A stretch of DNA of 64,000 bases, taken from positions 1 to 64,000 of the forward strand of contig JAFGKV010000036.1 in the NCBI GenBank assembly GCA_016928395.1. Direction: 5' to 3'. This document shows positions 18,612 through 35,155 of the stretch, piece after piece. Positions within the stretch are counted from its first letter, which is position 1. Every line of letters begins with the position of its first letter. This stretch comes from Candidatus Fermentibacterota bacterium. Its GTDB lineage: Bacteria > JAFGKV01. The position numbers were made by a program, and so were the translations under genes. The notes beneath the pieces were generated by a model. That model saw nothing but the letters and a program-made list of their open reading frames with translations. It did no database searches and was not told the DNA's origin.

Positions 18612-18655
18612 GACGTTGCGCAGCGTTCGAATCCGGCAGTTCAGGTGCCGTGGCC

Positions 18656-19192
18656 TTACCACGTCATACCTCGGATAACTGGGTCGGCCCACCCGGCGAA
18701 ATCCCAACCCGGATGATCAGAAGGGCCGGAATCGGTGGCAAGGAGCAGTGAGACTCGCTGACCCTCGTACAGGGAGAGGTCAACTTCGGCCTCAAGCCAG
18801 ACTCGGTCTTCATTCACCGCCTTGGGATTCACGTAACGGCTGAACGCAACGGTCGGATCGCTCGTGCCGTCGGCGATGCTGACGTGAAAGGTGACACCGT
18901 CGCCCGGCTTGTTCCAGACATCCTGGGGCATGCCCACTGCGAAACTGAGCTTGGCTTTGGCGGGCACAACCAGATCGAATCGGGCCGTGCTGACAGGATG
19001 CATGAAGATGCACTTCCTGGTGTCACCGCCGACATTGAGCACGGACTCCGAGACGAAGCTTGGCTGCTTGGCCGAGATCTTCGCCCGCGGCAGTTCGTCG
19101 ATAAGGGGAATGGTGATGACCTGCCGTTCCTTGGTGCAGGCCACCCCAAGCAGGGTGGCTGCAAGGGCTGAGATCACCGTGCATCGAATCAT
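18656..19192 (-). CDS. Lipoprotein with a beta-sandwich (CBM/NPCBM-like) domain of the kind often fused to sulfatases or GT-C proteins
   Basis: Lipobox LGVAC; GDGVTF...WLEAEVDLS...AGWADPVI; GGAGG RBS. Confidence 0.6.
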   Translation of the reverse strand: MIRCTVISALAATLLGVACTKERQVITIPLIDELPRAKISAKQPSFVSESVLNVGGDTRKCIFMHPVSTARFDLVVPAKAKLSFAVGMPQDVWNKPGDGVTFHVSIADGTSDPTVAFSRYVNPKAVNEDRVWLEAEVDLSLYEGQRVSLLLATDSGPSDHPGWDFAGWADPVIRGMTW

Positions 19193-20965: not shown

Positions 20966-22141
20966 TCAGAAGCTCCAGCGGTACACAACGTAGGGCTTGA
21001 GATCTACCTCCCCGCGGAACACGTTCAGGCCCGCCACATCCACCCGTACATTGGCCTTGGCGGGCCGTACTCGAAGTTCCATGGAGCCCCGCGGCCGGAT
21101 TTCCGCCGTGAACCGATGCTTCTGCGCGATGCTCCCTGACTGCACCCACCCTTTCAGGCCGGCCACCGACACGAGTCGGTAGTCTCCCTGTTCTTCGATA
21201 ACGATGACCGACGGCGATCCCTTGAGCATACCCACCGACGGCGCCGCAGGCGATGGGTACTGGAGCAAGGACACCCGCTCACCTACCACAGTGTGTTGCG
21301 GCGATTGGGCGGGAAAATCCATGGCGATGTCCGCCGACTTGGTCTCGTCGCATCGGAATTCGATGCGGGGGTAGAAGCTGCACGTGTCTACCGTCGCGTC
21401 GAACCGTGCGCCGGGCCATGGCGAGTAGGTCCGAGCCGCCGCGAGGGCTTCCTCCTCCCGGGCAAGAAACTCACGGCCTCGCTCGCCGTGCTCGCGCAGC
21501 CGATCCTGCACCGAGGGAAGCAACCGCATGTCGCTGCACAGAGTGATGATCTCTCGCAGAGGCGCCAGTCTCTCTGCCGCCGTTTCGCCACGGCGTGCCG
21601 CCCCGAACAAGGCCAGGCACAAGGCTTCCCGAAATTGCGAGCCGCCCGCGTCAAGGGCAGCGGCATCCCGCAACGCCTTTAGCCCACTCCCCCACTCCGC
21701 CCCGTGAAGCATCGCCTGTCCGACAGCCATGATCGACTCGGCTCGTTGTACCTGTAGCGACCATAGCTGGTGACGGTCTGCTCCGACCGCGTGGCCAGGT
21801 GGCGCGGCCGTGCCAATTAGTTCCAGAGCAAACGATGGAGCGGGCAAGTCCTCGACATAGGCGATCAGACGCTCCCACGCCTCGGTGTGGGTTGCCTCCA
21901 CATTCACCACCGAATGCCAGGCCGCGGCGGCTTCGCCGACGCGGCCGAGTGTATCAAGCGCCCGGGCGCGAGCGACGAGGCAGTCGAGACGCTCCGGTGC
22001 GGATTCCAGGCACTTCGCACTCTCTCGGAGGACGTCGTCCAGCCTGCCTTCGGCCAGCATTCCGTCCAGATTTCCGCTGCCGTGGCCGCACGCCGCCACG
22101 GCACACATCATGGCACAACCCATTACGCGTCGGTATCGCAT
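20966..22141 (-). CDS. TPR lipoprotein with a C-terminal SH3b-like segment
   Basis: Lipobox VAAC; TPR-like helices; [31 protein letters not shown] resembles bacterial SH3; GGAGG RBS inside the tdk 3' end. Confidence 0.6.
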
Positions 22142-22728
22142 GATTCCTCCTGATACGGTGCCTCCCACGGGCGGAAGCACTTGCGGCATCTCGGCTCGTA
22201 CGCAGCCTCCGCGCCGACAAGCACACGTTCCCTGCTGGGCACCAGCCGTTGAGAGCGATTGGCCGGGGCCCCGCACCGTACGCACACGGCCATGGTCTTG
22301 GTGATGGACTCGGCTACCGCAAGAAGCTGAGGTATCGGTTCGAAGGGACGGCCGAGATAGTCTTGATCCAGCCCTGCGACCACGACCCGTAGCCCGCGAT
22401 TCGCCAGTTCTTCGCAGACCTCGACCAAGGAGAGATCGAAGAACTGGGCCTCGTCGATTCCCACAACCTGGGTATCCTGTTCCACCTGCGAGAGAATGTC
22501 GGCCGGCGTCACCACCGCAACACCCGCGACCCGGTTCTTGTCATGGGAGACAATGTGGTCCTCGGAATAACGGTCGTCGGTGGCGGGTTTGAACGCCTGT
22601 ACCTTCTGCCGTGCGATGACGGCACGCCTGAGACGCCTGATGAGTTCCTCGCTCTTGCCACTGAACATGCTGCCGCAGATCACCTCTATCCAGCCGCATT
22701 CCCTGGGGGGATGCACTCCATCAGGCAT
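22123..22728 (-). CDS. tdk: Thymidine kinase
   Basis: [26 protein letters not shown], Zn-binding CVRC...RCRKC. Confidence 0.96.
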
Positions 22729-23263
22729 TGGCGTATACGCGCTCCCTCAGGACGCAGATGTCAGGCAGGTTCCGGTACTTCTCGCCGTAGTCGAGACCGT
22801 AGCCGACAACAAACTCATTGGGAATCTCTATCCCCACATAATCCAGATGCACTTCCAGCTTGCGCCGGGAGGGCTTATTCAGCAACGTGCATGTCGCCAG
22901 AGACCGTGGTTCCCTCACGTGCAGCAGGTCCTTCAAATAGGCCAACGTGAGCCCCGTGTCCACGATGTCCTCGACAATGATGACATCCATACCTTGGATG
23001 TTCTGCCCCAAATCGGAGTTGATCTTGACGATCCCCGTGGATTGCCGCGATGTGCCGTAACTGGAGATTGCCATGAAGTCCAGAGCAACCGGCAGTTCGA
23101 TGGCTCGAACCAGATCCGAGAGGAAGACGACTGCGCCCTTGAGTATGCCGACCAGGTACGGTTCCTTCCCCTGGTAATCTCTGGTGATCTCCTGCCCCAA
23201 CCGCCGTACCGCAGTCTGGATCTCCTCGGCACCGACCAAGACGCGATCAATGTCGTCCATCAT
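22721..23263 (-). CDS. hpt: Hypoxanthine phosphoribosyltransferase
   Basis: [42 protein letters not shown]. Confidence 0.96.
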
Positions 23264-23265
23264 GA

Positions 23266-24222
23266 TCAGAGCCCTGGCTCGTCAGGCACGATGTGGGTTC
23301 CGACACCGGGTTCCAAGGCGGAGTCTACCAAGTCAGGGGAGGTAATGATCACCTCCTTACCACCGCCGGCGAGGAACCGAAGCGCCGCATCGATCTTGGG
23401 GCCCATACTTCCCGCAGGAAACTCCCGCGCAGCCAGGAGTTCCCTCGCCTCGCTGGCGGTCATGCGATCCAGCCCATACTGCGCGGGGGTGCCATAGCCC
23501 CGGCACACCTTGGGAACGGCGGTGATGATGATGATCCTGTCTGCCTTGATGCGAGTCGCCAGCACCTCGGAAGCCAAATCCTTGTCGATCACCGCCTCGG
23601 CTCCCTCAAGCCAGCCTCCCGGCAGGCCATACACCGGGCATCCGCCGCCGCCGACGGCGATGACGATGATACCTTCGCGCACCAGTGCTGCGATACTGCT
23701 GCTCTCGACCACATCGATGGGGCGGGGAGAGGCCACGACCCGGCGGTATCCTCTCCCGGCATCCTCCACGATGTTCCAGCCGTCATGATTCCGGCGCTCC
23801 TCGGCTTCTGCGGCGGTGTAGAAGGGGCCGATGGGCTTTGTCGGGTTCCTGAACGCAGGATCTCCCCTATCCACCAAAACCTGGGTCACCACGGTGACGA
23901 CTTCCCGCTGTACACCGAGTTTCTGTAGCATATTGTGGAGACACTGCTGGATCATGTAGCCCATCCCCCCCGCGGAATCGGCCACGCAGATGCCCAAAGG
24001 CATAGGCGGGACGACGCTGCGGGCCATTTCATTGCGAAGGAGGATATTGCCCACCACCGGACCGTTGCCGTGGGTTATCACGATCCTGTACCCCTTGCGC
24101 ACAAGCCGCGCGACGCCCAGCATGCTCTGTCTCGTCACGGCGAACTGCTCCCCGATGGTGCCCTTGCTTCCCACGGGGATGATGGAGTTGCCTCCCAGGG
24201 CAATAACGATGGTTTCGCTCAT
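23266..24222 (-). CDS. arcC: Carbamate kinase
   Basis: IALGGNS, THGNGPVVG, PTKPIGPFY, GYRRVVASP, AVIDKDLAS, GSMGPKI. Confidence 0.94.
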   Translation of the reverse strand: MSETIVIALGGNSIIPVGSKGTIGEQFAVTRQSMLGVARLVRKGYRIVITHGNGPVVGNILLRNEMARSVVPPMPLGICVADSAGGMGYMIQQCLHNMLQKLGVQREVVTVVTQVLVDRGDPAFRNPTKPIGPFYTAAEAEERRNHDGWNIVEDAGRGYRRVVASPRPIDVVESSSIAALVREGIIVIAVGGGGCPVYGLPGGWLEGAEAVIDKDLASEVLATRIKADRIIIITAVPKVCRGYGTPAQYGLDRMTASEARELLAAREFPAGSMGPKIDAALRFLAGGGKEVIITSPDLVDSALEPGVGTHIVPDEPGL

Positions 24223-24231
24223 GTACCCTGC

Positions 24232-25236
24232 CTACCTGGTATCGGTGGAGAGGCGGAATCGGACTATGCGGTCATTTCCGGTGTCCGCGACGAACACGGT
24301 GCCATCGAACTCCGCGATGCCGCAGGGGTCCATGAACTGCTTCTCCCCCACCCCCCGCTCGCCGAACGACTGATACTCCTTGCCGAAGCCGCTGAACTTG
24401 AACACTCTGCAGAGATCGCTGTCCACAATGTAGAGGAACCCGTCGCCGTCGATGTCGACATCCTGCGGCCGCTCGAACTTACCCAAAGTGAACAGATCGC
24501 CTCCGGAGGAGGGGTCAAGCAAGGGTTTCCACCCATACGCATCGACGGTCACCATCTGTACCTTGTAGTAGTTCTCCCCGCGCTGGCAGTACGCGAAATC
24601 CACCGATCTATCCCGCACGGCGCATATTCCGGAAGGATCTGCCACCGCGAACAGGCCAGTGCCTCCCGGAGTCAGATTCAGAGGGCCCCGCACCGTGCCG
24701 TCCTCGCGGATGAAAAGGATCTGATTCGCATTCCGCTCATCGCCGCCGCAGGTCACGAGGTAGTAGATGCCACCCTCGGACGGCACGTAAAAAGCCTCGA
24801 CCCCATTGAAACGCCACGTCGGATGATCGACGGCCTTGTACAAGGTATCAACTGCGGCCGACTCGATACGGTGGGCCGCGGCGAAGAGGTCGATCCGGAG
24901 CAGGAAGTTCTTCCCGGTGGCCACCAGAAGCCTGAGCTTGGCGTCCTCCGCCACAGCGACCGGCGAATCGATGGGGGCCGAATACCCAAGACTATTGCCT
25001 ACGAGATCCAGCATGGCGACCCGGTTGTTGCCCGTGTCGGCCACAAACACCAGAGTCTCACGGCCAATGAGCACGTCGTGGGGTCTCGAAAACCCCTCCC
25101 ACACGGGCCGAAGCTGCAGGTAGGTCGTATCATCCACCGCGGTAGACCCATCATCCAGGGTCGGCTCCGGGGGCGTGAACTTGGCGCCGCACGAGGCCAA
25201 CCCGAGGAGTATCGCACCACACACTACCCAGCGCAT
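24232..25236 (-). CDS. NHL-repeat beta-propeller lipoprotein
   Basis: Lipobox LASC; repeats FSRPHDV..VADTGNNRV, FERPQDV, FMDPCGI..VADTGNDRI. Confidence 0.8.
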   Translation of the reverse strand: MRWVVCGAILLGLASCGAKFTPPEPTLDDGSTAVDDTTYLQLRPVWEGFSRPHDVLIGRETLVFVADTGNNRVAMLDLVGNSLGYSAPIDSPVAVAEDAKLRLLVATGKNFLLRIDLFAAAHRIESAAVDTLYKAVDHPTWRFNGVEAFYVPSEGGIYYLVTCGGDERNANQILFIREDGTVRGPLNLTPGGTGLFAVADPSGICAVRDRSVDFAYCQRGENYYKVQMVTVDAYGWKPLLDPSSGGDLFTLGKFERPQDVDIDGDGFLYIVDSDLCRVFKFSGFGKEYQSFGERGVGEKQFMDPCGIAEFDGTVFVADTGNDRIVRFRLSTDTR

Positions 25237-26219
25237 CAGAATCGAACCTCCATCGAGAGCCTGCTGGCGGAACCCAAGTCACCCATGAAGGTGTAGGCGT
25301 AGTCCGCTCTGAGCTGCCCGGCAACGGGGAGAAACACCCCGGCGCCGAGCACCGATGACTCAGCATCCGAGTTCAGCCTCAGGCCTGCTCGGACGAAGAC
25401 CATTTCGTTCATCGCGTATTCGAGACCCACGCCGAGATTCTCCGCATTGTCGTTCGGATGATTGAGTTGGGCCGAGGCCGTCAGGCGATGGCGAGGAGTG
25501 TCGACGATCTCATCCGCGAAGCCCAGACGAAACTCGGTCGGCGGACTGAACGATTCGAAGCTGGTGAGCGCCTCTCCCGTGGCAAGATCATACCTGCCCG
25601 ACGGCGAGGCATCGCCGCCGAAGTTGCTCACCACCACCGCAAACCTGGTGTTCCCCCACCCGGTTCGGTAGTAGGTTCCCATGTCGAATGTCACGGCCCG
25701 CATGTGGAGAAGATCGAGAGATTCTTCTACGTAGCGGGCGGTGAGTCCGAAGGAAAACCGGTCGGTCATGCTCCTGGCCAAAGTGACCGCGATGGCGAGG
25801 TCGCCGTACCGCCAGTACTCGCCCGTCCCTTCGGGCTGAAGCTCGGTGGTGACGGGCGTCTCGGGGCAGGCGAGCTGGCTCAGGGAGATGCCGACCGCGT
25901 TGGCGCCAAAAGGAATGGCGACGCCCACGAAACGGTGGGAGAGATCAACCGGCCAGTCAGTGTAGGAGGCCACGGCTGCACGGCCCACCATCACAATTCC
26001 TGCCGGATTCCAGTACAATGCCGAGGCATCATCGGCAATGGCGGTGAAGGCCCCCCCGAAGCCCAGCGCCCTGGCGCCCACCCCGATCTTGAGAAACTGA
26101 AACCCGCTGATGCCGACCCGCTGGCCGCCCAAGACGGGGATCAAGTCTGCCCTAACCGGGTATACCGAGGCCACAATCAGGAACGCCGCGGACACGAGTG
26201 CGACCTTAGAACGCCACAT
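25236..26219 (-). CDS. PorV/PorQ family (UPF0164-like) outer-membrane beta-barrel
   Basis: FLKIGVGARALGFGGAFTAIADDASALYWNPAGI signature; C-terminal Phe (MEVRF). Confidence 0.88.
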   Translation of the reverse strand: MWRSKVALVSAAFLIVASVYPVRADLIPVLGGQRVGISGFQFLKIGVGARALGFGGAFTAIADDASALYWNPAGIVMVGRAAVASYTDWPVDLSHRFVGVAIPFGANAVGISLSQLACPETPVTTELQPEGTGEYWRYGDLAIAVTLARSMTDRFSFGLTARYVEESLDLLHMRAVTFDMGTYYRTGWGNTRFAVVVSNFGGDASPSGRYDLATGEALTSFESFSPPTEFRLGFADEIVDTPRHRLTASAQLNHPNDNAENLGVGLEYAMNEMVFVRAGLRLNSDAESSVLGAGVFLPVAGQLRADYAYTFMGDLGSASRLSMEVRF

Positions 26220-28998
26220 TGAAGCCTACCCTGATATTGCGCGGGCTCAGATACCGCGCCGGGTTGAAGGGGTACGGCTGCACGGGGTCCTGACGATCGG
26301 GATAGAGCGGATCATTCCACCCCGGTGGTGTCGGATCTCCAAGCTCGTAGGCGCGGCCGGTGACCGGGTTAATGATGTTTGAGTTCCGTCGGTCAAGGAT
26401 ATTGAGGATCTCCAGCTCCACGGACTGTTTCATGCCGCCGAAGCTGAAGTACTTGGTGAGGTTGAAATCGACCCAGTGCCAGTGTTGCCCCAGCCTGCTG
26501 TACGGTCGAGTGTAATCGCTCACGTAGTTGGGGCGGCCATCAGCCAGAGAGTCGCCGGTGGCGATATACGGGGTGTAGCGCTTGCCCGACTGCAAAAAGA
26601 GCCGAAGCGACGCGCTCCAGTCATCCGGTAGCGTCAGGCCGAAGAAGCCCGGCGCATCGCCCGCGGGCACATTGAAAAACAGATCCGCGGAAAGCTGCAG
26701 AGGCCGGTCCCACACCAGAGTTGTTTCCTTGATGGGTTTCTCGTCCAGTTGACCGCGTGCAACCAGATACGCGTCGTCACTGGAGGAGCTCTTGCCCGTG
26801 GCCAGAGAGTAGCTCCCCGAGAGTCGTCCGGTGAGATAGCGCCCCGCGCGCTTCTTGTACTCCAGCTCGAGGCCCCGGACCCGGGCATAGTCCAGATTCA
26901 CGTAGGTGATGAAACTCTTGCCCGAGAGTCGTCCCTCGCCCTTCACCGAGATCGTGGTGACATAGTCGAAGATATCCTTGTAGTACGCGGTGACGCTGAG
27001 CACATCATCCTGAGTGAACTTCTGGCGGACGCCCAGTTCGTATGCCACCGTGGTCTCAAGATCCAGGTTCGGGTTGCCGAACTTCTGGAATGTACTCTGG
27101 GCGCTGTTCGGCCCCAGTTTCGCGTAGATGAACTGAGGCTTGGGCCGCTTGTTGAAGTGGCCGTAAGAAAAGAAGAGCATCTGGTTGTCACTCACGGGGT
27201 GGCTGATGCCCACGCGAGGCGAGATCCTGCCCTTCCACCGTCGCCCGAAGAAACCGTAGGTATCCTTGTTGAACCTGTCGCGGGCCTCCTGAGGAATGGT
27301 AGCGATGGTCGTATCGTCGACCGCGCGCTCCACGAAGGCGCCGGGGAACCACCAATCGAAGCGGAGCCCCAAATTGGCCAGCATGCCAGAGAAGGTGATA
27401 TTGTCCTGCAGGTAGGCCGCGCCGAAGCTGGGGTGTACGGTGTAGATGTCGTTGTTGAGGCCCAGATCGCCGTACCACGGGGCGTAAATGTCCACCAGCT
27501 GCATCTCCTGCGCGGTGGCCTCTATGCCCGCCTTCACCTTGTGCCCACTGCCACGGTTGCTGGAAATCGAAGCCTTGGCGGTGTACTCCTCCACGTGATG
27601 GTCGTGCCAAGTGAACCCATTGCCAAAGTCGTAGAACCCGTCACCGGGGATCACCATGATCAGCGAGTCGCCGGTCATGTAGTACTCCAGGGGCAAGGTC
27701 ACGATATCCTGAGGCTCGGTATACTCCGTCCAGTGCTTTCCTGCCACGTCGGAACGCAAATGCGTGAAGAACCGGCTGAGCCGCACATCGTAGAAGGTAC
27801 TCTTGCCCAGCGTGTGAATCCACGTGAGCGCCGTCAGAACATTGTCGTGGGTAAAGGTATCGAAGTTGTCCAGGTTGTACTGGAACTCATAGGGGTAGCC
27901 CGGCCCCGGCGGCACATACTCAAGGTTCGTCTGCAGCGACTGGGTGTTCTGATTGATGCGAATGGAGCGGTTGTAGGAAGCGATGAGCTTGTGGGTCGGG
28001 TCGATCTGCCAGGTGGTCTTGAACAGCCCCGACCAGTCATTGTCCTGACGAGGCGCATATGTCGACCCGTGGAAGATGCTCGACCTGAGCTGATCCGCCG
28101 TGAACCCCGCGTAGGAATCGGTGACAAACAAATGACCGGAGAAGAACAGGCTGAACTTGCCGGGCGGGCGAATCCCGAGCGCAGGCAGGGCGTACCGCGT
28201 GAGGGGCTCGGCGCCCTGCAGTGTGAACTCGAACACATCTGTGTTGAAGTTCGACTTCGCCTCGCCATTGAATCCGAAGTGATCGAGCTTGTAGCCCAGC
28301 GAACCCCGGTATCGGGTTCCCCCTTCCTTCGTACTCACGTTGACCACGCCGCTCATGGCCTGCCCATACTCCGCATTGAAGCCCCCGGTGATGACCTCCA
28401 TCTCTTCGATGGCGCCCGCGGCGACCCGAAGCCCGAAGCCGGTGCCCGAGAGCGGATCCTGCACGTTCAAGCCGTCCAGCAGATAGGCCGCCTCGTAGGA
28501 GCGGCCGCCCCGGATATGGATTTCGTCGTTCTGGGCCACCACACCCGCTTGGGACGACACGATATCTTCAACGTTCTGCACGATGGAGCCGGCGATATCC
28601 TCCGCAGTGAAGGCTTTGCGGCTGGCGGTCTCCTCAATGTCGAACAACGGTTGCTCGCCCACAATGACAATCTCCTGACCCAGGGCAAGCACCGTGGGTT
28701 CCAGCCTGGCCGCCACCGGAGTCGCCGCATTGGCGCTCACCTTCACGCCGGTCATCCGGGTTACCTTGTAGCCGATCATGGTGATCTCCAGCGTGTAGTC
28801 GCCGGGATTGAGATCGGGTATGAGGAACGAGCCGTCCAGATCACTCACCGCCCCGCTGTAGGTGCCTTGCACCAGAATGTTGACTCCGGGGAGGGGATCG
28901 CCGGTTTCACTGTCTTCCACCGAGCCCCTGATGGACCCTGGCTGTGCCGCCGCGGCGACGGTGAGGCACCCGAGGAGAAACATCGTCGCTCTCATCAT
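26206..28998 (-). CDS. TonB-dependent receptor with N-terminal carboxypeptidase-regulatory-like domain
   Basis: GDPLPGVNI...MIGY; plug HIRGGRS..ITGGFNAEYGQAMSGVVN; GNPNL..ETTVAYELG; C-terminal GFNVAF; ATGA overlap with the upstream stop. Confidence 0.92.
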   Translation of the reverse strand: MMRATMFLLGCLTVAAAAQPGSIRGSVEDSETGDPLPGVNILVQGTYSGAVSDLDGSFLIPDLNPGDYTLEITMIGYKVTRMTGVKVSANAATPVAARLEPTVLALGQEIVIVGEQPLFDIEETASRKAFTAEDIAGSIVQNVEDIVSSQAGVVAQNDEIHIRGGRSYEAAYLLDGLNVQDPLSGTGFGLRVAAGAIEEMEVITGGFNAEYGQAMSGVVNVSTKEGGTRYRGSLGYKLDHFGFNGEAKSNFNTDVFEFTLQGAEPLTRYALPALGIRPPGKFSLFFSGHLFVTDSYAGFTADQLRSSIFHGSTYAPRQDNDWSGLFKTTWQIDPTHKLIASYNRSIRINQNTQSLQTNLEYVPPGPGYPYEFQYNLDNFDTFTHDNVLTALTWIHTLGKSTFYDVRLSRFFTHLRSDVAGKHWTEYTEPQDIVTLPLEYYMTGDSLIMVIPGDGFYDFGNGFTWHDHHVEEYTAKASISSNRGSGHKVKAGIEATAQEMQLVDIYAPWYGDLGLNNDIYTVHPSFGAAYLQDNITFSGMLANLGLRFDWWFPGAFVERAVDDTTIATIPQEARDRFNKDTYGFFGRRWKGRISPRVGISHPVSDNQMLFFSYGHFNKRPKPQFIYAKLGPNSAQSTFQKFGNPNLDLETTVAYELGVRQKFTQDDVLSVTAYYKDIFDYVTTISVKGEGRLSGKSFITYVNLDYARVRGLELEYKKRAGRYLTGRLSGSYSLATGKSSSSDDAYLVARGQLDEKPIKETTLVWDRPLQLSADLFFNVPAGDAPGFFGLTLPDDWSASLRLFLQSGKRYTPYIATGDSLADGRPNYVSDYTRPYSRLGQHWHWVDFNLTKYFSFGGMKQSVELEILNILDRRNSNIINPVTGRAYELGDPTPPGWNDPLYPDRQDPVQPYPFNPARYLSPRNIRVGFNVAF

Positions 28999-30407
28999 CC
29001 AAGGCCCTCCACAAGCAACGCTAGAAGCTCGGCAGCACGGTTGTCCTTGTTGACCTGGTGGAGCGGAAACTCCAAAAACGCCAGGCGGTTCGAGCTGTGC
29101 CACACGCCCAGCACCGGCCGGCCGGTCCAGAACGTCGAACCCTCAGGGAGCCGGTAGAGCACCCGCGCGCTGGGCAGTGGTTCCAGGCCCCACACGAAAA
29201 ACAGGGCGCCGGTGGAACTCTGAATCTCCAACGGAGGCAATGGCGGAAGCTGTGGCAGCCCTAAGGAATCAGCCGGCGTCGCTTCCAGTGGCGTGCCGTT
29301 GAGGATGATGGAAATCACTTGGCACACACTGTCCACCCCGGCGAAGCCCAGAGGATCGCCCTGATTGGAGAAAGTCTCTGGCAGCGTCACGCTCATGATC
29401 ACCGTGCCCCCACTCTGCACATAGTCGGCCACCGAAACCTGAGCCTCCTCCAGATGCCAGCCTGAATCCCCGTACCAAATCACCATGTCGAACAGGTCGA
29501 GTGTCGCCGTCAAGGTAACCGTGGAGAAGGGGAAGAGGTCGGCCCTGCGGTCTCCGTTGTGGTCGGAACGGATGTCCCACGCGCTGTAGGGGCCGTACTC
29601 GACCAGTACCTCGTGGTAGAACGAGGGCGCGGCATCCGAGGTGGCATAGTCATCCACCAAGAGAATACCGCCCACCGGTTCACGCACATGCCACACGTCC
29701 GAGTCATCGGATGGCATCCTGGCCAGGGGCGACACGGCCCCGGCCACGTCGCGTGCCAGGAGGTAGAATACGTGATCGCCGGCCGTGAGGCCGCTGTCGG
29801 CGGTAACGGTCAGGCTGGTCGTCGTGGGAGGAAGAGGCCGCCACTGGGTCAGCGGCTGAGTTGAGTCGTCCAGGGTCCAGAAGAACGATTCGATGGTGTC
29901 GTCACCATCATAGTCGGTGCCGTTCCAGAAGAAGGAAGCTACGGTAAAGGTTGTCTCCGGAACATCGGATCCGACGACAAACTCCACCACCGGTGGGGTA
30001 TTGTGGACCGGGAAATGCTGGAAGGCCGGAGTCGGATCCACGTCGCCGGCATCGTCGACTGCGCTGATCCTGAATGTGTAGATCGTGTCGGTGCCCGAAA
30101 TGGCCAAGGCAAACACGCTGTCGTACCGGGTCGTGAACTGCCACGCGGAGGGATCGGGGTCGTCGTCTTCCCAGGAGAAGATGAAGCCCTCTACCGACCC
30201 GTCGGGATCATCTCCCCACCAAAAGAGGTGCTGCTGGCTTACGGTGGAAGCCAGCGCCGTATCGGGGGCCGAGGTATCAGGGTAGAGAGAGAGAAACGTT
30301 TCGGGAGGCCGGTTGGCCAGAAGGGTTCCGCCTCGCTCTGCCTCGCATCCTGCCAGAAGGGCCAGGCCCGCGGCCACTGTCGCGAGCCCGGCCACGCGCC
30401 TCGTCAT
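28995..30407 (-). CDS. Surface lipoprotein with two FN3/Ig-like repeats and a C-terminal alpha/beta domain
   Basis: Lipobox LAGC; repeated W-x-G-x-D-x-D-G modules (NRPPET...WWGDDPDG; NTPPVV...WNGTDYDG); TGATG overlap with the upstream gene. Confidence 0.7.
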   Translation of the reverse strand: MTRRVAGLATVAAGLALLAGCEAERGGTLLANRPPETFLSLYPDTSAPDTALASTVSQQHLFWWGDDPDGSVEGFIFSWEDDDPDPSAWQFTTRYDSVFALAISGTDTIYTFRISAVDDAGDVDPTPAFQHFPVHNTPPVVEFVVGSDVPETTFTVASFFWNGTDYDGDDTIESFFWTLDDSTQPLTQWRPLPPTTTSLTVTADSGLTAGDHVFYLLARDVAGAVSPLARMPSDDSDVWHVREPVGGILLVDDYATSDAAPSFYHEVLVEYGPYSAWDIRSDHNGDRRADLFPFSTVTLTATLDLFDMVIWYGDSGWHLEEAQVSVADYVQSGGTVIMSVTLPETFSNQGDPLGFAGVDSVCQVISIILNGTPLEATPADSLGLPQLPPLPPLEIQSSTGALFFVWGLEPLPSARVLYRLPEGSTFWTGRPVLGVWHSSNRLAFLEFPLHQVNKDNRAAELLALLVEGLG

Positions 30408-32443
30408 CAATGCAGCACCACCACCCGTTCGCTGCGCTCCTGGTCGTCGGCCTGGAGCCGGAGCAGATAGGTGCCCGCGGAAACCCGCCTGCCTTCGCCG
30501 TCGTGCCCGTTCCACACCATGCGGTGGGTCCCCGCAGCCTGGGCGCCCACATCGAATCGATGCACCTGGCGGCCGGCCAGGTCGAACAGGCCCAGCGTCA
30601 CATCGGCGGCGGCAGGCAGCGCATAGGTCAGAGTAAATGACGATCCGCCGGGGTTCGGGAAGGGAGACAGGAGCCGCACCAGGTCGGCTTTGGCCGGGTG
30701 GACAGGCGTGCCCACGCCCAGTTCCACATCCCACGGTCCGCGGGGCGCCAGCTTGTAGTTGTAGAAGGCGTAGTATTGGAACCCCTGCAGGAAGTTGAAC
30801 TTCATGCCTTCGGTGTACAGCGTATCGAGCTGGGCATCGAAGGAAAGGGCCAAGTCATCAACCCGATACTCGCCGCTCCCGTCATCCACGGCGAATTCAC
30901 CATAGTTGCCCGGTGCATCGGGGAACGCATTCGTGACCGTGGCGTTCTCGACCCTGACCAGCATGCTCTCCCAGGATTCGGCGGTGAGCCCGGCCGCGGT
31001 GTTCAAGGCGCCGGTGGTAAGCACTACGGGATCGTAGACCGGATTACCGGTCGATAGGATGCGCACGTCAACGGCTGGATTCTGGGGCGTAATGCGCGTC
31101 ACATAGTACCACTCGTCAATGACACCCGTGACCTCGACCAAATCCCCGGGGTTGGGGACCGTGTAGCTGTCCCAGACCACGATGCCATTCCAGGGATCGG
31201 TGCCCGAACTCTGGATGAAGTAGTATGAGCCGGCAAAGGGCAGCGTGTCGTTCATCACCGTCCCAGTGACGGTGACGGTGTAGCCCACATAGGGCGACTC
31301 GCTGTTGTAGACACCATTGCCGTACGGCGTCCACTGGGTGTGGTAGATGCCGAAGCCCTCATCCAGCACATGGTAGAGATAGAGATAGGCGCTGGAATCA
31401 GGCCAGTTCACGGTATTGCCGGAATTGTCGGTGGCCTGGATGAGGAACTCCACCACGGAATTGTGCGTCTGCGGTGGAATGATGCCTGCATAGGTGCTGT
31501 CGTCGGCGCCGGAGTACACCATGGGCGTGCTCTGGAAAGGGCTGCCGTCGACACGATAGAGCAAGCTGGCCGTCTCTACGGTTCCGTCGATGTCGTAAAT
31601 GAGCGCCGACACATTGACGGAAGTTGAGCTTCCCGGAACCGCCACATCGCGGACCACGTCGCCTATGACCGGCGCCAGGGCATGCACACTCAGATCATCA
31701 GGCGCCCGTGGCGAGACGCTGTAGCTGCCGGTGCCGTTGGCCATATCCTTGACGAATCCCACGACGTCAAGCCGGGAGCCATTGGGAGGCCAGGAGTACT
31801 GCCCACTGGTGAGCAGCGCATACATGGGATTCCACCAGGTATCGAGGGTCACCTGGAATCCGGTCTCGTCCTGGACCAAAGCCCGGTAGCCGCCCAGGTT
31901 GTTGTTGATCATGGTGGCGTTCTCGATCTTGACCAGAGACGCTTCCCATGGCTCCCCGAGGACCCGGGTCGAAAAGTCTTCACACGTCAGCACCGTGGGT
32001 TCGGGAACGGGCTCGACCCCGAGGACCGTAATCGGGACCAGAGGATTCAGCATGAGGTTGACCTGGGTCCTCGATTCGCCGCTCGTGGGATACTCGCTTA
32101 CTATCCCGGAATAGCGAACGAGAAATCCCGGCTGCACAGCCGTGATATTCGTCGCTCCCATGCCGGCCGAAGTCGTATCGTCTTGCACGATCTGCACGGT
32201 GCTCCACGGCCCACCCGTGGTATCGGCGATGAGCACCGACCAACGTGCCCCTATGTAGATGGACCGGGCATCGGTCTGGGCAACACCGACAACCTGTACC
32301 GTATCGCCCAACATGGGGCTGTCGTCATCAGTCGCCGGATCGGGACAGATCTGAATGTCCTGCACGGTGACCTCGGGCCACTGGGCCTGCAATGGCACGG
32401 CCAGAGCCAGGGCAAGAAGTGCGGTCAGAAGAAAGCGTGTCAT
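30407..32443 (-). CDS. Secreted protein with duplicated OB-fold modules (extracellular-nuclease accessory type), Ig domain and FlgD/T9SS-like CTD
   Basis: Signal peptide; internal duplication SPMLGDTVQVVGV...EPWEASLVKIENAT vs SPYVGYTVTVTGTV...ESWESMLVRVENAT; CTD PFPNP...FDLAGRQV...WNGHD..G..VSAGTY; AGGAGG RBS. Confidence 0.7.
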   Translation of the reverse strand: MTRFLLTALLALALAVPLQAQWPEVTVQDIQICPDPATDDDSPMLGDTVQVVGVAQTDARSIYIGARWSVLIADTTGGPWSTVQIVQDDTTSAGMGATNITAVQPGFLVRYSGIVSEYPTSGESRTQVNLMLNPLVPITVLGVEPVPEPTVLTCEDFSTRVLGEPWEASLVKIENATMINNNLGGYRALVQDETGFQVTLDTWWNPMYALLTSGQYSWPPNGSRLDVVGFVKDMANGTGSYSVSPRAPDDLSVHALAPVIGDVVRDVAVPGSSTSVNVSALIYDIDGTVETASLLYRVDGSPFQSTPMVYSGADDSTYAGIIPPQTHNSVVEFLIQATDNSGNTVNWPDSSAYLYLYHVLDEGFGIYHTQWTPYGNGVYNSESPYVGYTVTVTGTVMNDTLPFAGSYYFIQSSGTDPWNGIVVWDSYTVPNPGDLVEVTGVIDEWYYVTRITPQNPAVDVRILSTGNPVYDPVVLTTGALNTAAGLTAESWESMLVRVENATVTNAFPDAPGNYGEFAVDDGSGEYRVDDLALSFDAQLDTLYTEGMKFNFLQGFQYYAFYNYKLAPRGPWDVELGVGTPVHPAKADLVRLLSPFPNPGGSSFTLTYALPAAADVTLGLFDLAGRQVHRFDVGAQAAGTHRMVWNGHDGEGRRVSAGTYLLRLQADDQERSERVVVLH

Positions 32444-32497
32444 TGGATCCTCCTTTGGCGAGGCCGAAACCGGCCACGCCCGTGTACGTACCCGTGT

Positions 32498-34561
32498 CTA
32501 CTTGATGATTAGGAACCTGCCTCGCTGCACATCGCCGCTGGCTCGATCCTCAACGGTGAAGAGGTAGAGGCCCGTGGCGACGGCTTGATCACTGCTGGAT
32601 ATGAGATCCCACCCATGCTCCCCCCCAGAGAACACGGCGTCGGGCTTAGAGAACTGCTCAAACCACCGGATACCCACACCCGAGTACCCCGCGGCATCGT
32701 GTTCGAAACTGTCCACCAGATCCCCGGCCACGGTGTAGATTTTCACTCTGCACCGTGCCGGCAGGTTACGGAAGTAGACCTTGCGCTCCCGTTCGAGCCT
32801 GCCGTCCCACAGGGCTCGCACGACATACGGATTGGGATACACCGACACCGCGGCCGCATCGGGCGATGCGGGTTGAGTTCCCGGAAACACCCGAATCAGA
32901 TTGCTCAGCCGGCTGGATTCCAGGCTCTCCAGACCATAGGTGGGATCACCCGTATCGTAGGCCGTGACCGAGTAGGCGTATTGCCACCCGCTGTGCACCT
33001 GCGAATTGATGAACCGGTAGGTGCAGACCAAGGTATCGGGCTCTCCCGTCCGCTCGTCGGTGCCGATGAACACGACGGGTTCGTCTAGCCGGGCCAGTTC
33101 GAATCCGGTATCGTAGCCGAGGCCATTCACCGAGTCATACTCGGCGACCCGCACCATGGAGCTCAAGAGATCACGACCGGGCAGGTCTTCAAAGAGCCTG
33201 CTACGATAAATGCGATACCCTTCGAAATCCTTCTTCCCGCTGATGAAATCGATAGACTCCTCCGCGCGAGAGTCCCAGTAAAGGGTCACCTCCGCGTCGC
33301 CGGGAACAGCCCTTACCCGGGGTGTTGTCGGCGGCGTCGGCAAGATGTAGCGATCCAGCATACCGTCGCCGTTGAGGTCTTCACCGGGGTCGAGGATACC
33401 ATTGCCGTTGCGATCTTCGCCGTCATAGGCGGTCTGGGCCCAGAATGCATTGTTGTAGAGGTTTCTCTTGGCCAGCTCAGTGTCTTCGGTGTTGGGATCA
33501 TTGCCGAACTTCTTCGCGCAGACCACCGCGAAGACGATATTCATGGTGCTGTCGGGATCCAGGCGCTGGAACGGCCCCGTAGTAATCAGGGTCATCCGGT
33601 TGGACGGACTCCGGTAGATCGCTTCCAACTGGGGAGGCGTGAGTGGAACCGACATCTTCTCATACCGTTCGCGGTCGTTCTGGGGCGAGAAGTACACCGG
33701 GTCGCTGGTATTGCGGAACGCCCACACATGCATGTGCGTGAAACCCTGGTAAAGGCTGTCGCTGCTCTGGGGAGTGACGCCAAGGAGCTTGAGGCCGATG
33801 TAGCTCTCAGTGAACCCCGGATCGCCATCGTAGTCATAGGCGTAGGCGATCCGCAACGAATCGACCCACCCGTTGCCGACATGCTGGTAGAAGGGCGAGC
33901 CGACCCGGGGCGGCGTGATGCTGACATTGCGGACAACCAAATCGGCCCAGAGGCCGAGCCACAGGTCATGGAGAGGCTGGCGCCCGGTGTTCTTGATGGT
34001 GTAGTTGAAGATCACGAACGCATCGGCGAAAGAGTAGTTCCAGGCATAGGTCTCCATGTTGACAGAGACATTCATGGGCGTATGCTGCGGAATGGTGATG
34101 CTCGTGCCCGGCACCACGGTATTCGAGTCGGTGAAGCTGGCAACGAAATCCTGATGGCTGATGGCTTCCGGATGGTAGAAGCGACTATCCAAGAGGCTGG
34201 AGCGCTCGATCACGACGTCGGTGGGATCGGCGGAGTTGGTGAATTCAAAACCGGCCGCCACATCCTGGAGGTAGGCGACGTCCAAAGCGCCGGTGGTGAC
34301 CCTGATCTGTCCATCGGGCAGTTTGGCGCCGATCCAGAGTCCCCCGTCGAACATATGTTCGACATGCGACCCCGTCGGATACTCGCACGATGGCTGATCA
34401 TTGGGGAACTGAATCAGGAACCCGTCGCCGAACGTGCCATAGTTGGAGATGGTAAGGTTGACATTGCCGACGGTGGTGTACTTGCTGGCGTCGTCGATAG
34501 CGCCTGACGGCGTAGGCACCGTGAGCAGGAGTGCCGCCAGAGCGGCGAGTCTCGTTCGCAC
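32498..34561 (-). CDS. Secreted hypothetical protein with Ca-binding DxNGNG repeats, FN3-like domain and VYPNPY-type CTD
   Basis: Signal peptide; GEDRNGNGILDPGEDLNGDG; VTLYWD..DFEGYRIYRS; VYPNPY...IYTVAGDLV...WDL...VATGLY...GRFLIIK; GTG start. Confidence 0.75.
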   Translation of the reverse strand: MRTRLAALAALLLTVPTPSGAIDDASKYTTVGNVNLTISNYGTFGDGFLIQFPNDQPSCEYPTGSHVEHMFDGGLWIGAKLPDGQIRVTTGALDVAYLQDVAAGFEFTNSADPTDVVIERSSLLDSRFYHPEAISHQDFVASFTDSNTVVPGTSITIPQHTPMNVSVNMETYAWNYSFADAFVIFNYTIKNTGRQPLHDLWLGLWADLVVRNVSITPPRVGSPFYQHVGNGWVDSLRIAYAYDYDGDPGFTESYIGLKLLGVTPQSSDSLYQGFTHMHVWAFRNTSDPVYFSPQNDRERYEKMSVPLTPPQLEAIYRSPSNRMTLITTGPFQRLDPDSTMNIVFAVVCAKKFGNDPNTEDTELAKRNLYNNAFWAQTAYDGEDRNGNGILDPGEDLNGDGMLDRYILPTPPTTPRVRAVPGDAEVTLYWDSRAEESIDFISGKKDFEGYRIYRSRLFEDLPGRDLLSSMVRVAEYDSVNGLGYDTGFELARLDEPVVFIGTDERTGEPDTLVCTYRFINSQVHSGWQYAYSVTAYDTGDPTYGLESLESSRLSNLIRVFPGTQPASPDAAAVSVYPNPYVVRALWDGRLERERKVYFRNLPARCRVKIYTVAGDLVDSFEHDAAGYSGVGIRWFEQFSKPDAVFSGGEHGWDLISSSDQAVATGLYLFTVEDRASGDVQRGRFLIIK

Positions 34562-34618
34562 GGAGCTCTCCTCGGTTCCCTGTGTGAGTGATTGGGTGAG
34601 ACCTCACAGGAGGTATGC

Positions 34619-35155
34619 ATGAATGACGCAGGATTAGCGGATGCATCGCCGCTTGTCAAGGCGTTCGCGACATCCCCCCGTTTCGCGGCTGATATGATGC
34701 TGGGCAGCCTTGCCAGATGGCTGAGAATCCTGGGATTCGACACGGTATTCGGGCCCGACTTTGATGACGATGCCCTCATACGCCAGTCCAATGCCTCGGG
34801 GCGGATCCTTCTCACGGCTGACCGCGCCCTGGCCTCCCGGCCCATCGCACGACGCGCCGTTCTGCTTCCGCCATCGCGCCTCCCGGAGCAATGGCAGGCA
34901 CTGGTACGGGCCATGCCCCTTCTCCCGTGGGTTCGGCCCTTCACCCGTTGCGGCACCTGCAATGACCCGCTGCGATCTCTTCCCCGGGACCGGGCCCGTG
35001 ATCGAGTACCGCCGCACATTTTCGACGTGCATGGTTCCTTTCTGGCCTGCCCGTCCTGTCGCCGCGTGTACTGGCCGGGAACCCATCGCGATCACATCCT
35101 GGGACGGGTGCAGCGGCTTGGGGCTGCCATCGGGCAGTGCCCGGAGCCAAGATGA
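34619..35155 (+). CDS. Mut7-C RNase domain protein (PIN-like + Zn ribbon)
   Basis: FAADMMLGSLARWLRILGFD, RILLTAD, TRCGTCN, CPSCRRVYWPGTH; AGGAGG RBS. Confidence 0.88.
   Translation: MNDAGLADASPLVKAFATSPRFAADMMLGSLARWLRILGFDTVFGPDFDDDALIRQSNASGRILLTADRALASRPIARRAVLLPPSRLPEQWQALVRAMPLLPWVRPFTRCGTCNDPLRSLPRDRARDRVPPHIFDVHGSFLACPSCRRVYWPGTHRDHILGRVQRLGAAIGQCPEPR

Follow-up and report, generated by a model that had tools for sequence, protein, structure and literature searches.

The Bacteroides thetaiotaomicron DNA-utilisation locus ddbABCDEF encodes a CarboxypepD_reg TonB receptor together with a DUF5689 protein (Sharan et al., bioRxiv 10.1101/2025.03.18.642099; PNAS PMC12478041), and DNA binding by DdbD is a prediction only in that work (bioRxiv 10.1101/2025.03.18.642099). 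In the accessible part of its description, the Riemerella anatipestifer pair RA0C_RS04915/RA0C_RS04920 is an outer-membrane pair needed for natural transformation (PMC8459023). Placement of T9SS cargo on cognate PorV-family barrels is likewise described, in the accessible part of the source, for PorZ-PorQ, PorU-PorV and type B C-terminal sorting domains (CTDs) with PorP/SprF (PMC10202324).

We analysed a 64,000-nt stretch of DNA from Candidatus Fermentibacterota (GCA_016928395.1, contig JAFGKV010000036.1; hereafter the window, to which all coordinates refer), in which an earlier note had read ten co-oriented genes (Table 1) as a PUL-like system for nucleic acids of a kind that it did not know to have been described. 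That claim of novelty is outdated in part, as TonB-receptor plus DUF5689 DNA loci have been published (Bacteroides ddb, Riemerella); our literature search found no description of a CTD-protein/PorV-family pair embedded in TonB-receptor operons.

The locus shares with ddb a PUL-like logic without SusD, a CarboxypepD_reg TonB receptor, a link to base metabolism, an extracellular OB-fold protein (DUF5689/HIN-like in ddb) proposed to hold DNA, and further surface proteins. However, ddb encodes three nucleases whereas none of the six conserved genes described below encodes one, and DdbD is a lipoprotein adjoining the receptor whereas g9 is a T9SS-CTD protein with four OB folds encoded apart from it; the PorV-like barrel, the supersandwich CTD protein and the NHL lipoprotein are additional to the ddb set. 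A profile search found no nuclease domain with a signal peptide in the ten window proteins. The Riemerella pair, as presented in the accessible part of PMC8459023, similarly joins a CarboxypepD_reg outer-membrane barrel to a surface protein and is proposed to carry DNA across the outer membrane, but consists of two genes, includes a DUF5689+DUF5017 protein, serves transformation and is described there without CTD proteins or a PorV-like barrel. With SusC/SusD PULs and utilisomes the locus has in common a CarboxypepD_reg TonB receptor, surface binding proteins and lipoproteins in one putative operon, as well as a multi-copy unit in the genome with varied accessory enzymes; unlike them, it has no SusD in the locus or the genome, its receptor falls below the TIGR04056 cut-off, and the receptor is partnered by a T9SS CTD protein that comes with a PorV-like barrel of its own. 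As in PorZ-PorQ and PorU-PorV, a CTD protein is encoded with a dedicated PorV-family barrel to which the CTD is predicted to bind; the known pairs, so far as the accessible part of PMC10202324 covers them, serve secretion/attachment machinery or gliding adhesins, whereas the present pair lies inside TonB-receptor operons.

Table 1 Genes of the locus, with coordinates in the window
Gene	Position	Strand	Features
g10, secreted protein, 687 aa	32498..34561	(-)	SPI signal; beta-supersandwich 22-408, FN3-like 416-540, T9SS-type CTD 573-687
g9, secreted protein, 678 aa	30407..32443	(-)	OB-OB-Ig-OB-OB and T9SS type A CTD; without catalytic domain
g8, FN3 lipoprotein, 470 aa	28995..30407	(-)	two FN3 domains and a ~240 aa C-terminal domain
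g7, TonB-dependent receptor (TBDR)	26206..28998	(-)	CarboxypepD_reg N-terminus, plug and barrel
g6, PorV/PorQ-family (FadL-like) outer-membrane barrel	25236..26219	(-)	NF033709
g5, NHL-repeat beta-propeller lipoprotein	24232..25236	(-)	last of the conserved six
arcC, carbamate kinase	23266..24222	(-)	NF009007; clade-specific, starts 9 nt past the NHL gene
hpt, hypoxanthine phosphoribosyltransferase	22721..23263	(-)	TIGR01203; clade-specific
tdk, thymidine kinase	22123..22728	(-)	PF00265 / NF003296; clade-specific
g1, lipoprotein, 391 aa	20966..22141	(-)	lipobox AVAAC; clade-specific
Mut7-C RNase-domain gene, divergent from g10	34619..35155	(+)	PF01927; clade-specific neighbour

Gene order and the conserved six-gene cassette

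All ten minus-strand genes are present as single open frames, co-oriented and tightly packed, and re-reading every junction from the sequence confirmed the overlaps and short gaps of the earlier note. Briefly, a 54-nt gap separates g10 from g9, the g9/g8 and PorV-like/NHL junctions both read TGATG, the g8/TBDR junction reads ATGATGA, and the TBDR and PorV-like genes overlap by 14 nt; further downstream follow gaps of 9 nt (NHL/arcC) and 2 nt (arcC/hpt) and overlaps of 8 nt (hpt/tdk) and 19 nt (tdk/g1). The ATG of the Mut7-C gene at 34619 leaves a 57-nt divergent gap to g10. Three short metatranscriptome contigs (three runs, one study) matched the locus at ≥99% (21398-21591, 23245-23395 and 34067-34238), for which DNA carry-over is possible, and none of the three crosses a gene junction by at least 31 letters. 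A promoter/terminator scan, whose consensus may not be that of the lineage, gave counts at chance (5 vs 4.1 ± 1.9; 11 vs 9.2 ± 3.2).

The conserved unit is the six genes g10-g9-g8-TBDR-PorV-like-NHL, not all ten: homologous loci outside the close clade show no arcC, hpt or tdk neighbours in the stretches visible past the NHL gene. Of the 80 genome loci surveyed, all yielded g10, 78 yielded g9, 57 g8, 54 the TBDR, 48 the barrel and 44 the NHL gene, with order and strand constant, and 80 metagenome loci show the same gene order. The six-gene order is kept in genomes labelled Calditrichia, KSB1, Neomarinimicrobiota, Ignavibacteria and Eisenbacteria, and from phylum to phylum g10 and the receptor retain 50-60% identity. 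In each of three other genomes searched, one orthologue stands well above the paralogues. The phylum-level genome set comprised three genomes, and the wider synteny is taken from the related-locus survey. In Ignavibacteriales, a conserved upstream set of 2-oxoacid dehydrogenase complex and lipoate genes was judged to be made up of unrelated neighbours.

Several degradative-type genes adjoin or interrupt the cassette in some lineages. Where genome loci have room past the NHL gene (41 loci), the gene directly after it is of DUF5689+PLDc_2 type in 25 and of EEP+CTD type in four; the PLD association comes mostly from one clade (Ignavibacteria) and therefore reflects few independent events. Among metagenome loci, a PLD/DUF5689-type gene lies directly past NHL in 7 of 37, neighbours there having been typed by local BLAST and PDB sequence search, by which nuclease families beyond PLD/EEP could be missed. 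An M4 peptidase+CTD gene is inserted in the cassette at three loci (L065, L070 and L072), beta-lactamase-fold (S12) genes occur at two (L059 and L079), and a PlpD-like patatin lipase follows NHL in five metagenome loci; the downstream gene at L171 had no PDB match. No glycoside hydrolase was found beside the cassette among the accessory genes scanned. Against the own genome, the Pfam DUF5689 model gave 0 matches at E ≤ 0.01, and the N-termini of two PLD proteins there resemble DUF5689 below threshold (the copy on contig C200 scores 21.5 bits).

Receptor, barrel and putative surface proteins

Profiles agreed with the labels Hpt, Tdk, carbamate kinase, NHL, PorV/PorQ, TonB receptor, g9 CTD and Mut7-C given in the earlier note; its 'TPR' label for g1 fell, as the sole match was a sub-threshold one to SH3_3 (19.9 bits vs a cut-off of 27). 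The description of g8 as an FN3 lipoprotein holds, with an LAGC lipobox (LLAGC in full), a profile match to titin FN3 in the PDB (E 1e-10) and an fn3 domain in 6 of 28 orthologues. NHL repeats in g5 were recognised at E 1.4e-10, next to an LASC lipobox, and among solved sequences the NHL domains of TRIM71/TRIM2 come closest to it.

The receptor g7 matches the CarboxypepD_reg, Plug and TonB barrel families of Pfam and is 50-62% identical across the sampled phyla. Paralogous receptors of its own genome align with it full-length (E 1e-91), and phmmer found no solved structure at E ≤ 1e-5. In comparison with DdbC-like receptors it reaches 21-23% identity in the N-terminal part only and is not a close relative; BLAST alignments with five receptors adjoining canonical DUF5689 genes covered just 170-250 N-terminal residues at 19-24% identity (E 4e-7 to 4e-4). 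The SusC model TIGR04056 matched only its N-terminal 200 residues (66 bits vs a cut-off of 368). The absence of a SusD-like gene beside the receptor, remarked on earlier, extends to the genome: family search found no SusD-like match in any of the ten proteins, and PF07980 had 0 matches in the 94%-complete genome.

The barrel g6 belongs to the PorV/PorQ family (NF033709, 177 bits, cut-off 90), shows a weak FadL/Toluene_X match (18.5 bits) and is distinct from the genome's best canonical PorV candidate, on contig C97 (124 bits vs a cut-off of 250). SprA is present in the genome (463 bits summed, above cut-off), and PorU-like matches remain below theirs (218 bits vs 420). The receptor/CTD-protein/PorV-like trio occurs in five further copies in this SusD-free genome, where sister trios adjoin GH31 and a CBM20-CTD protein, and a Melioribacteraceae chromosome has the same trio at 7 of its 8 paralogue loci. 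Modelling the g10 CTD together with the g6 barrel gave ipSAE values of 0.92, 0.93 and 0.92 (0.00 for the best of three controls; the mark is one that 58 of 80 solved complexes attain, compared with 2 of 110 mismatched pairs), with at least 89% of contacts shared between runs and a partner pLDDT of at least 65. The g10 CTD is thus predicted to dock on g6, a result that may reflect solved PorV-CTD structures; together with the recurrence of the trio, it favours the earlier suggestion that CTD cargo would be held on a dedicated PorV-like barrel.

Within the cassette, conservation is highest for g10, which matches no Pfam family and whose homologues (at least 1875, 52-85% identity) are every one annotated 'hypothetical'. 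In its AF2 model (pLDDT 83.1), the N-terminal domain is a supersandwich of the galactose-mutarotase/glucoamylase-N type, a fold typical of carbohydrate-active enzymes (9ju0, Z 19.3, rmsd 3.4, 261 aligned; 1lf6, Z 18.3), and the CTD is a C-terminal beta-sandwich with a weak PorZ-CTD match only (E 7e-5). For g9 (AF2 pLDDT 84.4), the model bore out the tandem OB folds, which match the AspRS/AsnRS anticodon-binding OB (Z ~11) in structure comparison, and the CTD matches that of PorU (Z 11.9) as well as FlgD_ig (54.8 bits) and TIGR04183 (33.1 bits vs a cut-off of 23). Whole-chain Foldseek searches with either model returned mostly generic multidomain proteins of the Ig/FN3 kind; among the rows used was, at rank 15 for g9, the p204 HIN-dsDNA complex 5z7d (E 8.9e-6).

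On profile evidence, g9 shares homology in its four OB folds with the OB region at the N-terminus of ExeM/NucH (NF033681) and, remotely, with DUF5689/DdbD, in line with the earlier view of g9 as an OB-fold protein of the extracellular-nuclease kind. The window protein matches NF033681 over residues 400-526 (E 8.6e-9), and 31 of 32 g9 orthologues match its N-terminal OB part only (best E 1.7e-17), all far below the 300-bit cut-off; 13 of the 32 also match the nucleic-acid OB family PF01336. The KSB1 orthologues of g9 have an additional Lamin Tail Domain (LTD), a domain also present in ExeM/NucH nucleases. Unlike ExeM/NucH, however, g9 and its 31 orthologues have no Exo_endo_phos catalytic domain in family profile searches, and g9 is probably a binding module only. 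The path to DdbD runs through Ignavibacteria DUF5689-PAP_N-PLD proteins, which hhalign relates to g9 (Prob 99.2, E 6.8e-20) and to canonical DdbD-like lipoproteins (Prob 88, E 2.8e-6); compared directly, the profiles of g9 and canonical DdbD-like proteins match only weakly (Prob 24, E 8e-4). None of the 32 orthologues reached the Pfam DUF5689 threshold, one longer orthologue scoring 23.5 bits vs a cut-off of 28.6, and a search of proteins 1188-3390 residues long gave no fused long form of the OB pair at E ≤ 1e-5 (weak evidence). The OB pairs are strongly acidic in 32 of 32 orthologues (median net charge -15.5 and -17, pI ~4.3), a composition that is unusual in a module binding a polyanion, unless cations form a bridge; acidity is shared by the DUF5689 region of DdbD-like proteins (pI 5.0).

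Salvage genes, substrate and function

Salvage-gene assignments are above cut-off for arcC (NF009007, 360 bits vs 266) and hpt (TIGR01203, 214 bits vs 150), tdk matches PF00265 (179 bits) and NF003296 (263 bits), and the Mut7-C gene matches PF01927 (139 bits). The coupling of the surface genes to arcC-hpt-tdk proposed in the earlier note is a real linkage but specific to the close clade, all members of which, where room allows, have arcC, hpt, tdk and Mut7-C on the flanks of the cassette. The three genes lie past the cassette in one related genome (G002) and in 4 of 4 close metagenome loci with room (L166-L169), compared with 0 of 37 more distant metagenome loci (0.6-9 kb visible beyond NHL) and 0 of 78 other genome loci (only ~0.3-1.5 kb visible beyond the NHL gene); outside the close clade, this is the outcome that the earlier note had set as refuting its reading. 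Five other cassette-bearing genomes were checked, of which four gave tdk and four an hpt match above cut-off; these genes sit on a different contig or ≥70 kb from the cassette. Downstream of tdk, g1 is kept in G002, L166 and L167, and Mut7-C adjoins g10 in L001, L048 and L168 only and in none of the 78 other genome loci.

We tentatively favour, at somewhat under an even chance, reading the cassette as a six-gene outer-membrane capture-and-import system, probably for extracellular nucleic acid, which the salvage genes joined in this clade. In this model, g10 and g9 would be exported by Sec/T9SS and displayed at the surface through their CTDs, with at least the g10 CTD predicted to remain on the barrel encoded after the receptor, like PorZ on PorQ; the CTD proteins and the FN3 and NHL lipoproteins would surround the TonB-dependent receptor as a capture assembly that does without SusD. 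The OB folds of g9 would most likely hold extracellular nucleic acid or oligonucleotides, a plausible substrate, and g7 would bring fragments in. In the close clade alone, where the cassette stands in one tight, possibly co-transcribed gene string with arcC-hpt-tdk, imported bases and thymidine could then be salvaged. Of the PUL-like nucleic-acid system first proposed, the SusD-less surface-capture and TonB-import architecture is thus supported, and the salvage linkage is specific to one clade.

The same architecture might instead serve other cell debris (phospholipid/phosphodiester, peptides/muropeptides or glycan), with the OB folds as generic ligand-binding modules and the FadL-like barrel passing hydrophobic products, which we consider rather unlikely but the most serious competitor on substrate. 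The carbohydrate-enzyme fold of g10 (Z 19.3), the GH31 and CBM20-CTD neighbours of sister trios, the peptidase, S12 and patatin genes at the cassette in some lineages, the acidity of the OB modules and the weak FadL/Toluene_X match of g6 (PorV being a FadL homologue) all fit it, and the PLD and EEP superfamilies contain phospholipases too. Yet the OB modules are specifically homologous to ExeM/NucH and DUF5689, with an LTD in KSB1 orthologues; the PLD-type neighbour itself bears a DUF5689 OB module; the clade-specific neighbours are all nucleotide- or RNA-related; and the accessory genes scanned include no glycoside hydrolase, all of which speaks against this alternative. DNA uptake for natural transformation rather than nutrition seems very improbable: it would accord with the essential role of the CarboxypepD_reg barrel and DUF5689 pair in Riemerella, in the accessible part of PMC8459023, and with ComEC in this genome (209 bits), but ComEC also matched in 10 of 14 control genomes and is therefore uninformative, g7 is not close kin of DdbC/RS04915-type receptors, and the cassette is joined to base/nucleoside salvage genes in the close clade and to degradative-type enzymes elsewhere.

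Scarcely more probable is a role in adhesion, surface-layer display or export through a TonB receptor in place of nutrient import; the genes would then make up a conserved apparatus of the surface or envelope that merely uses T9SS cargo and has salvage genes as incidental neighbours. Such a role would suit the cross-phylum identity of g10 and the receptor, the single orthologue well above paralogues in each of the three other genomes searched and the lack of an enzyme among the six genes, and TonB-dependent receptor-like proteins can serve export, as Oar does in Myxococcus. However, the trio is multi-copy and lies beside GH31 and CBM20 genes like utilisation loci, degradative-type enzymes recur by the cassette, and one clade has the tight operon-like string with salvage genes.

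More broadly, and held with greater reserve than the capture-and-import reading itself, receptor/CTD-protein/PorV-like trios may be a general T9SS-dependent alternative to SusC/SusD in SusD-poor Bacteroidota-related phyla, in which the surface lid or binding protein would be no lipoprotein but a secreted protein, its CTD left uncleaved and seated on a PorV/PorQ-family barrel of its own next to the receptor; the six-gene cassette would be the oldest, most conserved, nucleic-acid member, and its fusion with arcC-hpt-tdk a complete capture-to-salvage operon. If true, the ddb idea of DNA utilisation would extend from gut Bacteroidales to many environmental phyla dominating sludge and sediments, habitats in which much nutrient is stored as extracellular DNA; there would be a second way of making an outer-membrane 'utilisome', from T9SS cargo on PorV-like barrels rather than SusD lipoproteins; PorV-family paralogues would gain a role outside secretion; upwards of 1800 conserved proteins annotated 'hypothetical' would receive a family name; and metagenomes would offer a marker cassette for nucleic-acid scavengers. 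Even with the wrong substrate, the receptor/CTD/barrel architecture is a testable structural prediction. As a minor observation, the closest named Atlas cluster of g8 is DUF4960 (0.91), which we take as a lead only.

A six-gene cassette and its clade-specific neighbours

Ten co-oriented genes lie on the minus strand of the window (contig C293 of a 4.79 Mb metagenome-assembled genome, 94% complete), encoding a supersandwich-CTD protein (g10; CTD, C-terminal sorting domain of T9SS cargo), a CTD protein with four OB folds (g9), an FN3 lipoprotein (g8), a TonB receptor, a PorV-like barrel (g6), an NHL lipoprotein, ArcC, Hpt, Tdk and g1. Every junction listed in the earlier note is present in the sequence: the gaps measure 54, 9 and 2 nt and the overlaps 14, 1, 8 and 19 nt, with TGATG and ATGATGA at the other two junctions. 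Family scans upheld most of its gene labels, including the thymidine kinase, HGPRTase and carbamate kinase identities, the NHL repeats, the PorV/PorQ family of g6 (NF033709, 177 bits against a cut-off of 90), a CarboxypepD_reg-Plug-barrel receptor of TonB type, a FlgD_ig/T9SS CTD in the 678-aa g9 and the Mut7-C gene in divergent orientation from g10. Lipoboxes are borne by g8, the NHL protein and g1, the last of which found no family-scan support for its TPR label. The receptor proved to have no SusD-like neighbour: SusD families were matched nowhere at the locus, and PF07980 (SusD_RagB) gave 0 matches across the whole genome, although CTD proteins and CarboxypepD_reg TonB receptors are numerous in it.

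Species-representative genomes were scanned with g10 as anchor (562 relatives confirmed), and the best 80 loci were typed by tblastn of the ten window proteins. Among these best 80 of 562, matches were obtained for g10 at 80, g9 at 78, g8 at 57, the receptor at 54, the PorV-like barrel at 48 and the NHL protein at 44, and for arcC, hpt and tdk at one each (all at L048, a same-family relative labelled Candidatus Fermentibacteria). Matched cassette genes kept the window's order and single strand in all cases, and missing ones were mostly at loci that end early; L053, L077 and L082 gave no g8 match despite at least 2 kb beyond g9, and L065, L070 and L072 have extra genes after g9 (below). Locus labels include KSB1, Calditrichia, Neomarinimicrobiota, Ignavibacteria and Melioribacteraceae, among others.

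Because the genome flanks reached just about 0.3–1.5 kb past the NHL gene, a second, metagenome scan was anchored on the PorV-like gene (289 contig loci confirmed, best 80 kept). Among the five closest loci (g6 identity 64–76%), those with room carried arcC straight after the NHL gene (4/4), then hpt and tdk (3/3) and g1 (2/2); arcC, hpt and tdk were found in none of the 37 remaining loci (g6 identity at most 54%) with at least 600 nt after the NHL gene. Across five other cassette genomes, tdk was found in four and hpt above cut-off in four, either on a different contig or at a distance of 70 kb or more, and on a complete Melioribacteraceae chromosome (G007) the distance of both from the cassette exceeds 0.7 Mb. 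Mut7-C adjoins g10 only in L048, L168 and L001 (labelled Candidatus Eisenbacteria), and the PMT_2/TPR gene next outward of it is not conserved in G002, the genome that carries L048. From these synteny counts in genomes and metagenomes, the conserved unit is six genes, from g10 to the NHL gene, and Mut7-C with arcC-hpt-tdk-g1 has been stably added in a single family-level clade. The interpretation in the earlier note is partly supported: its architecture and probable substrate class stand, whereas its ten-gene unit and its general coupling to nucleotide salvage do not, salvage neighbours being kept in the close clade only.

Other neighbours were also recorded. Downstream of the ten genes lie a sulfatase-family gene and a large ORF (table); no sulfatase match above 60 bits was found in the 80 metagenome loci, close-clade L166 and L167 included, and the G002 contig stops there. 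Within one lineage (L065, L070, L072), a small ORF of roughly 160 aa and an M4 thermolysin-like peptidase-CTD protein of roughly 1040 aa stand between g9 and g8. Five loci (L210, L235, L238, L240, L243) have, directly after the NHL gene and on the same strand, a gene of about 920 aa resembling patatin-like PlpD, a type Vd autotransporter (5fqu, E 2e-56, on L238). A 2-oxoacid dehydrogenase complex with lipoate ligase/synthase, conserved just upstream on the same strand in related Ignavibacteriales, was judged an unrelated neighbour.

Coordinates of the cassette region, g9 domains, receptor/CTD-protein/barrel trios and other loci
Feature	Location	Strand	Remarks
Ten co-oriented ORFs	window 34561 -> 20966	minus	
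Sulfatase-family gene (alkaline-phosphatase superfamily)	window 19441-20808	minus	just downstream of g1; weak Phosphodiest match
940-aa ORF	window 15885-18707	minus	without Pfam family
g9 OB	residues 22-150		Asp/Asn-tRNA synthetase anticodon-binding OB, Z about 11
g9 OB	residues 149-259		Z 10.8
g9 Ig-like	residues 256-362		Z 13
g9 second OB pair	residues about 385-578		ExeM/NucH match at residues 400-526
g9 CTD	residues 586-678		PorU CTD, Z 11.9
Trio, same genome	contig C55		L043
Trio, same genome	contig C151		L044
Trio, same genome	contig C135		L045
Trio, same genome	contig C159		L046
Trio, same genome	contig C240		L047
Protein with PLDc_2 domains, same genome	C200:13730-17776		L148
Protein with PLDc_2 domains, same genome	C93:55970-58384		L147
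2-oxoacid dehydrogenase complex, lipoate ligase/synthase	L125:2758-9723		judged unrelated neighbour

Cassette proteins and the receptor/CTD-protein/barrel design

The AF2 model of g10 (pLDDT 83.1, pTM 0.77, from 40 sequences) comprises a 390-residue beta-supersandwich of glucoamylase-N/galactose-mutarotase type (Z 19.3, 261 aligned, rmsd 3.4 against 9ju0; Z 18.3 against 1lf6), an FN3-like domain and a C-terminal beta-sandwich. This last part carries PNPY- and K-terminal motifs, which we take to be T9SS type A motifs, and its weak PorZ-CTD match is the sole database support for T9SS CTD identity. Homologues number at least 1875, the best 120 at 52–85% identity, and none has a Pfam family or informative name. 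Many polar residues are invariant in the 40-sequence alignment (e.g. E68, H69, R120, S121, H136 and Q137, and further D138, E170, D207, R211 and N212), which hints that the supersandwich may have a defined ligand or catalytic site. A conserved acidic segment at residues about 381–404 (consensus GEDRNxNGxLDPGEDxNGDGxLD), which resembles a calcium-binding motif, precedes the FN3-like domain.

The AF2 model of g9 (pLDDT 84.4, alignment of 32 sequences) resolves into the domains listed in the table; KSB1-type orthologues at L052 and L053 are longer (about 950–1000 aa), with an extra N-terminal Lamin Tail Domain, and that of L053 has a DUF5689 match below threshold. Profile search placed two FN3 domains in g8, which resembles DUF4960 lipoproteins in Atlas, a lead only. 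The closest solved sequences to the NHL protein are the TRIM71/TRIM2 NHL propellers, which bind RNA, and this proves nothing for the protein here.

The earlier note had CTD proteins held on the PorV-like barrel, and structure prediction agreed for g10. The complex of g6 (residues 25–327) with the g10 CTD (residues 556–687), predicted from own-built alignments and hence with rough calibration, gave ipSAE values of 0.92, 0.93 and 0.92 in three runs against 0.00 for the best of three controls, with at least 89% contact agreement and partner pLDDT of at least 65; among solved complexes 58 of 80 reach the ipSAE mark, among mismatched pairs 2 of 110. Since structures of PorV-CTD complexes are already solved, the pass shows likeness to that known binding mode and is not proof. 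According to PMC10202324, PorZ and PorU keep their CTDs uncleaved and stay bound through them to PorQ and PorV, respectively, and type B cargo has cognate barrels of its own, PorP/SprF; by analogy, these cases lend support to CTD retention on a dedicated barrel.

The same arrangement recurs beyond the cassette. Five good paralogues of the barrel occur in the window's genome, each preceded by a g10-like protein (700–1280 aa, 24–34% identical, matching g10 best over the C-terminal 120–150 residues) and, upstream of that, a CarboxypepD_reg TonB receptor, all three tightly packed; none of the five large g10-like proteins has a Pfam family. A GH31 glycosidase gene follows the C135 trio and a CBM20 + FlgD_ig CTD protein the C151 trio, as would be expected if the trios were utilisation loci for different substrates. 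On the G007 chromosome, the same trio was found at seven of the eight barrel-paralogue loci fetched (L157–L164). The genome has SprA, and its best candidate for a canonical PorV is found away from the trios, on C97, so the trio barrels form a subfamily of their own. The barrel family has 10–14 members in each of three other genomes, and g10-like ORFs also occur on C22 and C172 of the window's genome, with a PorV-like match on neither contig. In literature full text we found no account of PorV in the cassette-bearing phyla, nor of a TonB receptor operon that combines a PorV-family barrel with T9SS-CTD proteins; the design is widespread and apparently undescribed, and it is directly testable.

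Putative substrate and relation to known systems

The belief that nothing similar had been described falls, because a SusD-less, PUL-like DNA-utilisation concept is in print for ddbABCDEF of Bacteroides thetaiotaomicron (2025; 10.1101/2025.03.18.642099) and a DNA-uptake pair for Riemerella (2021; PMC8459023). The general DNA-utilisation idea is thus already known, and the substrate of the cassette remains putative. By its receptor and its nuclease content the cassette falls outside the ddb family, and g9 does not adjoin the receptor; the cassette would at most work like that family by analogy and through a remotely shared OB module.

As the earlier note had it, the g9 OB folds are of the extracellular-nuclease kind: 31 of 32 orthologues match the ExeM/NucH endonuclease model in its OB part, and 13 of 32 match PF01336. 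The Lamin Tail Domain added in KSB1 orthologues points the same way, as do the nucleotide-related neighbours at both cassette ends in the window's clade. Furthermore, the first OB pair matches the N-terminus of DUF5689 + Pur_ac_phosph_N + PLDc_2 proteins (Prob 99.2, E 6.8e-20), which in turn match (Prob 88) seven canonical DUF5689 lipoproteins from Bacteroidota loci with a receptor of roughly 940 aa directly upstream. According to the two reports, DUF5689 has two characterised members: DdbD, which is proposed to bind DNA as partner of the receptor DdbC (10.1101/2025.03.18.642099), and RA0C_RS04920, essential for Riemerella transformation (PMC8459023). At 25 of the 41 genome loci with room, the NHL gene is followed on its own strand by a DUF5689-PLD gene, and at four by an EEP+CTD gene (one on the opposite strand); a PLD/DUF5689-type gene lies within 4 kb at 7 of 37 metagenome loci.

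Against nucleic acid, some PLD and EEP enzymes are phospholipases, and the PLD association is mostly in one clade; at the cassette, other lineages encode an M4 peptidase, enzymes of the S12 fold or a patatin lipase like PlpD. All g9 orthologues have very acidic OB pairs, g9 compared directly with DdbD gives a weak profile match (Prob 24), the receptor is DdbC-like at its N-terminus only, and none of the conserved six genes encodes a nuclease. Taking the points for and against together, we consider nucleic acid the single most likely substrate, at slightly below even chances; with a transformation variant included, it becomes roughly an even bet.

Away from the cassette, the window's genome also encodes two proteins of about 805 aa (L147 and L148) that combine a DUF5689-like OB N-terminus, FN3/PAP_N and two PLDc_2 domains, and at L148 the gene before it encodes a secreted OB-like protein of 330 aa, and the one after it a Macro domain.
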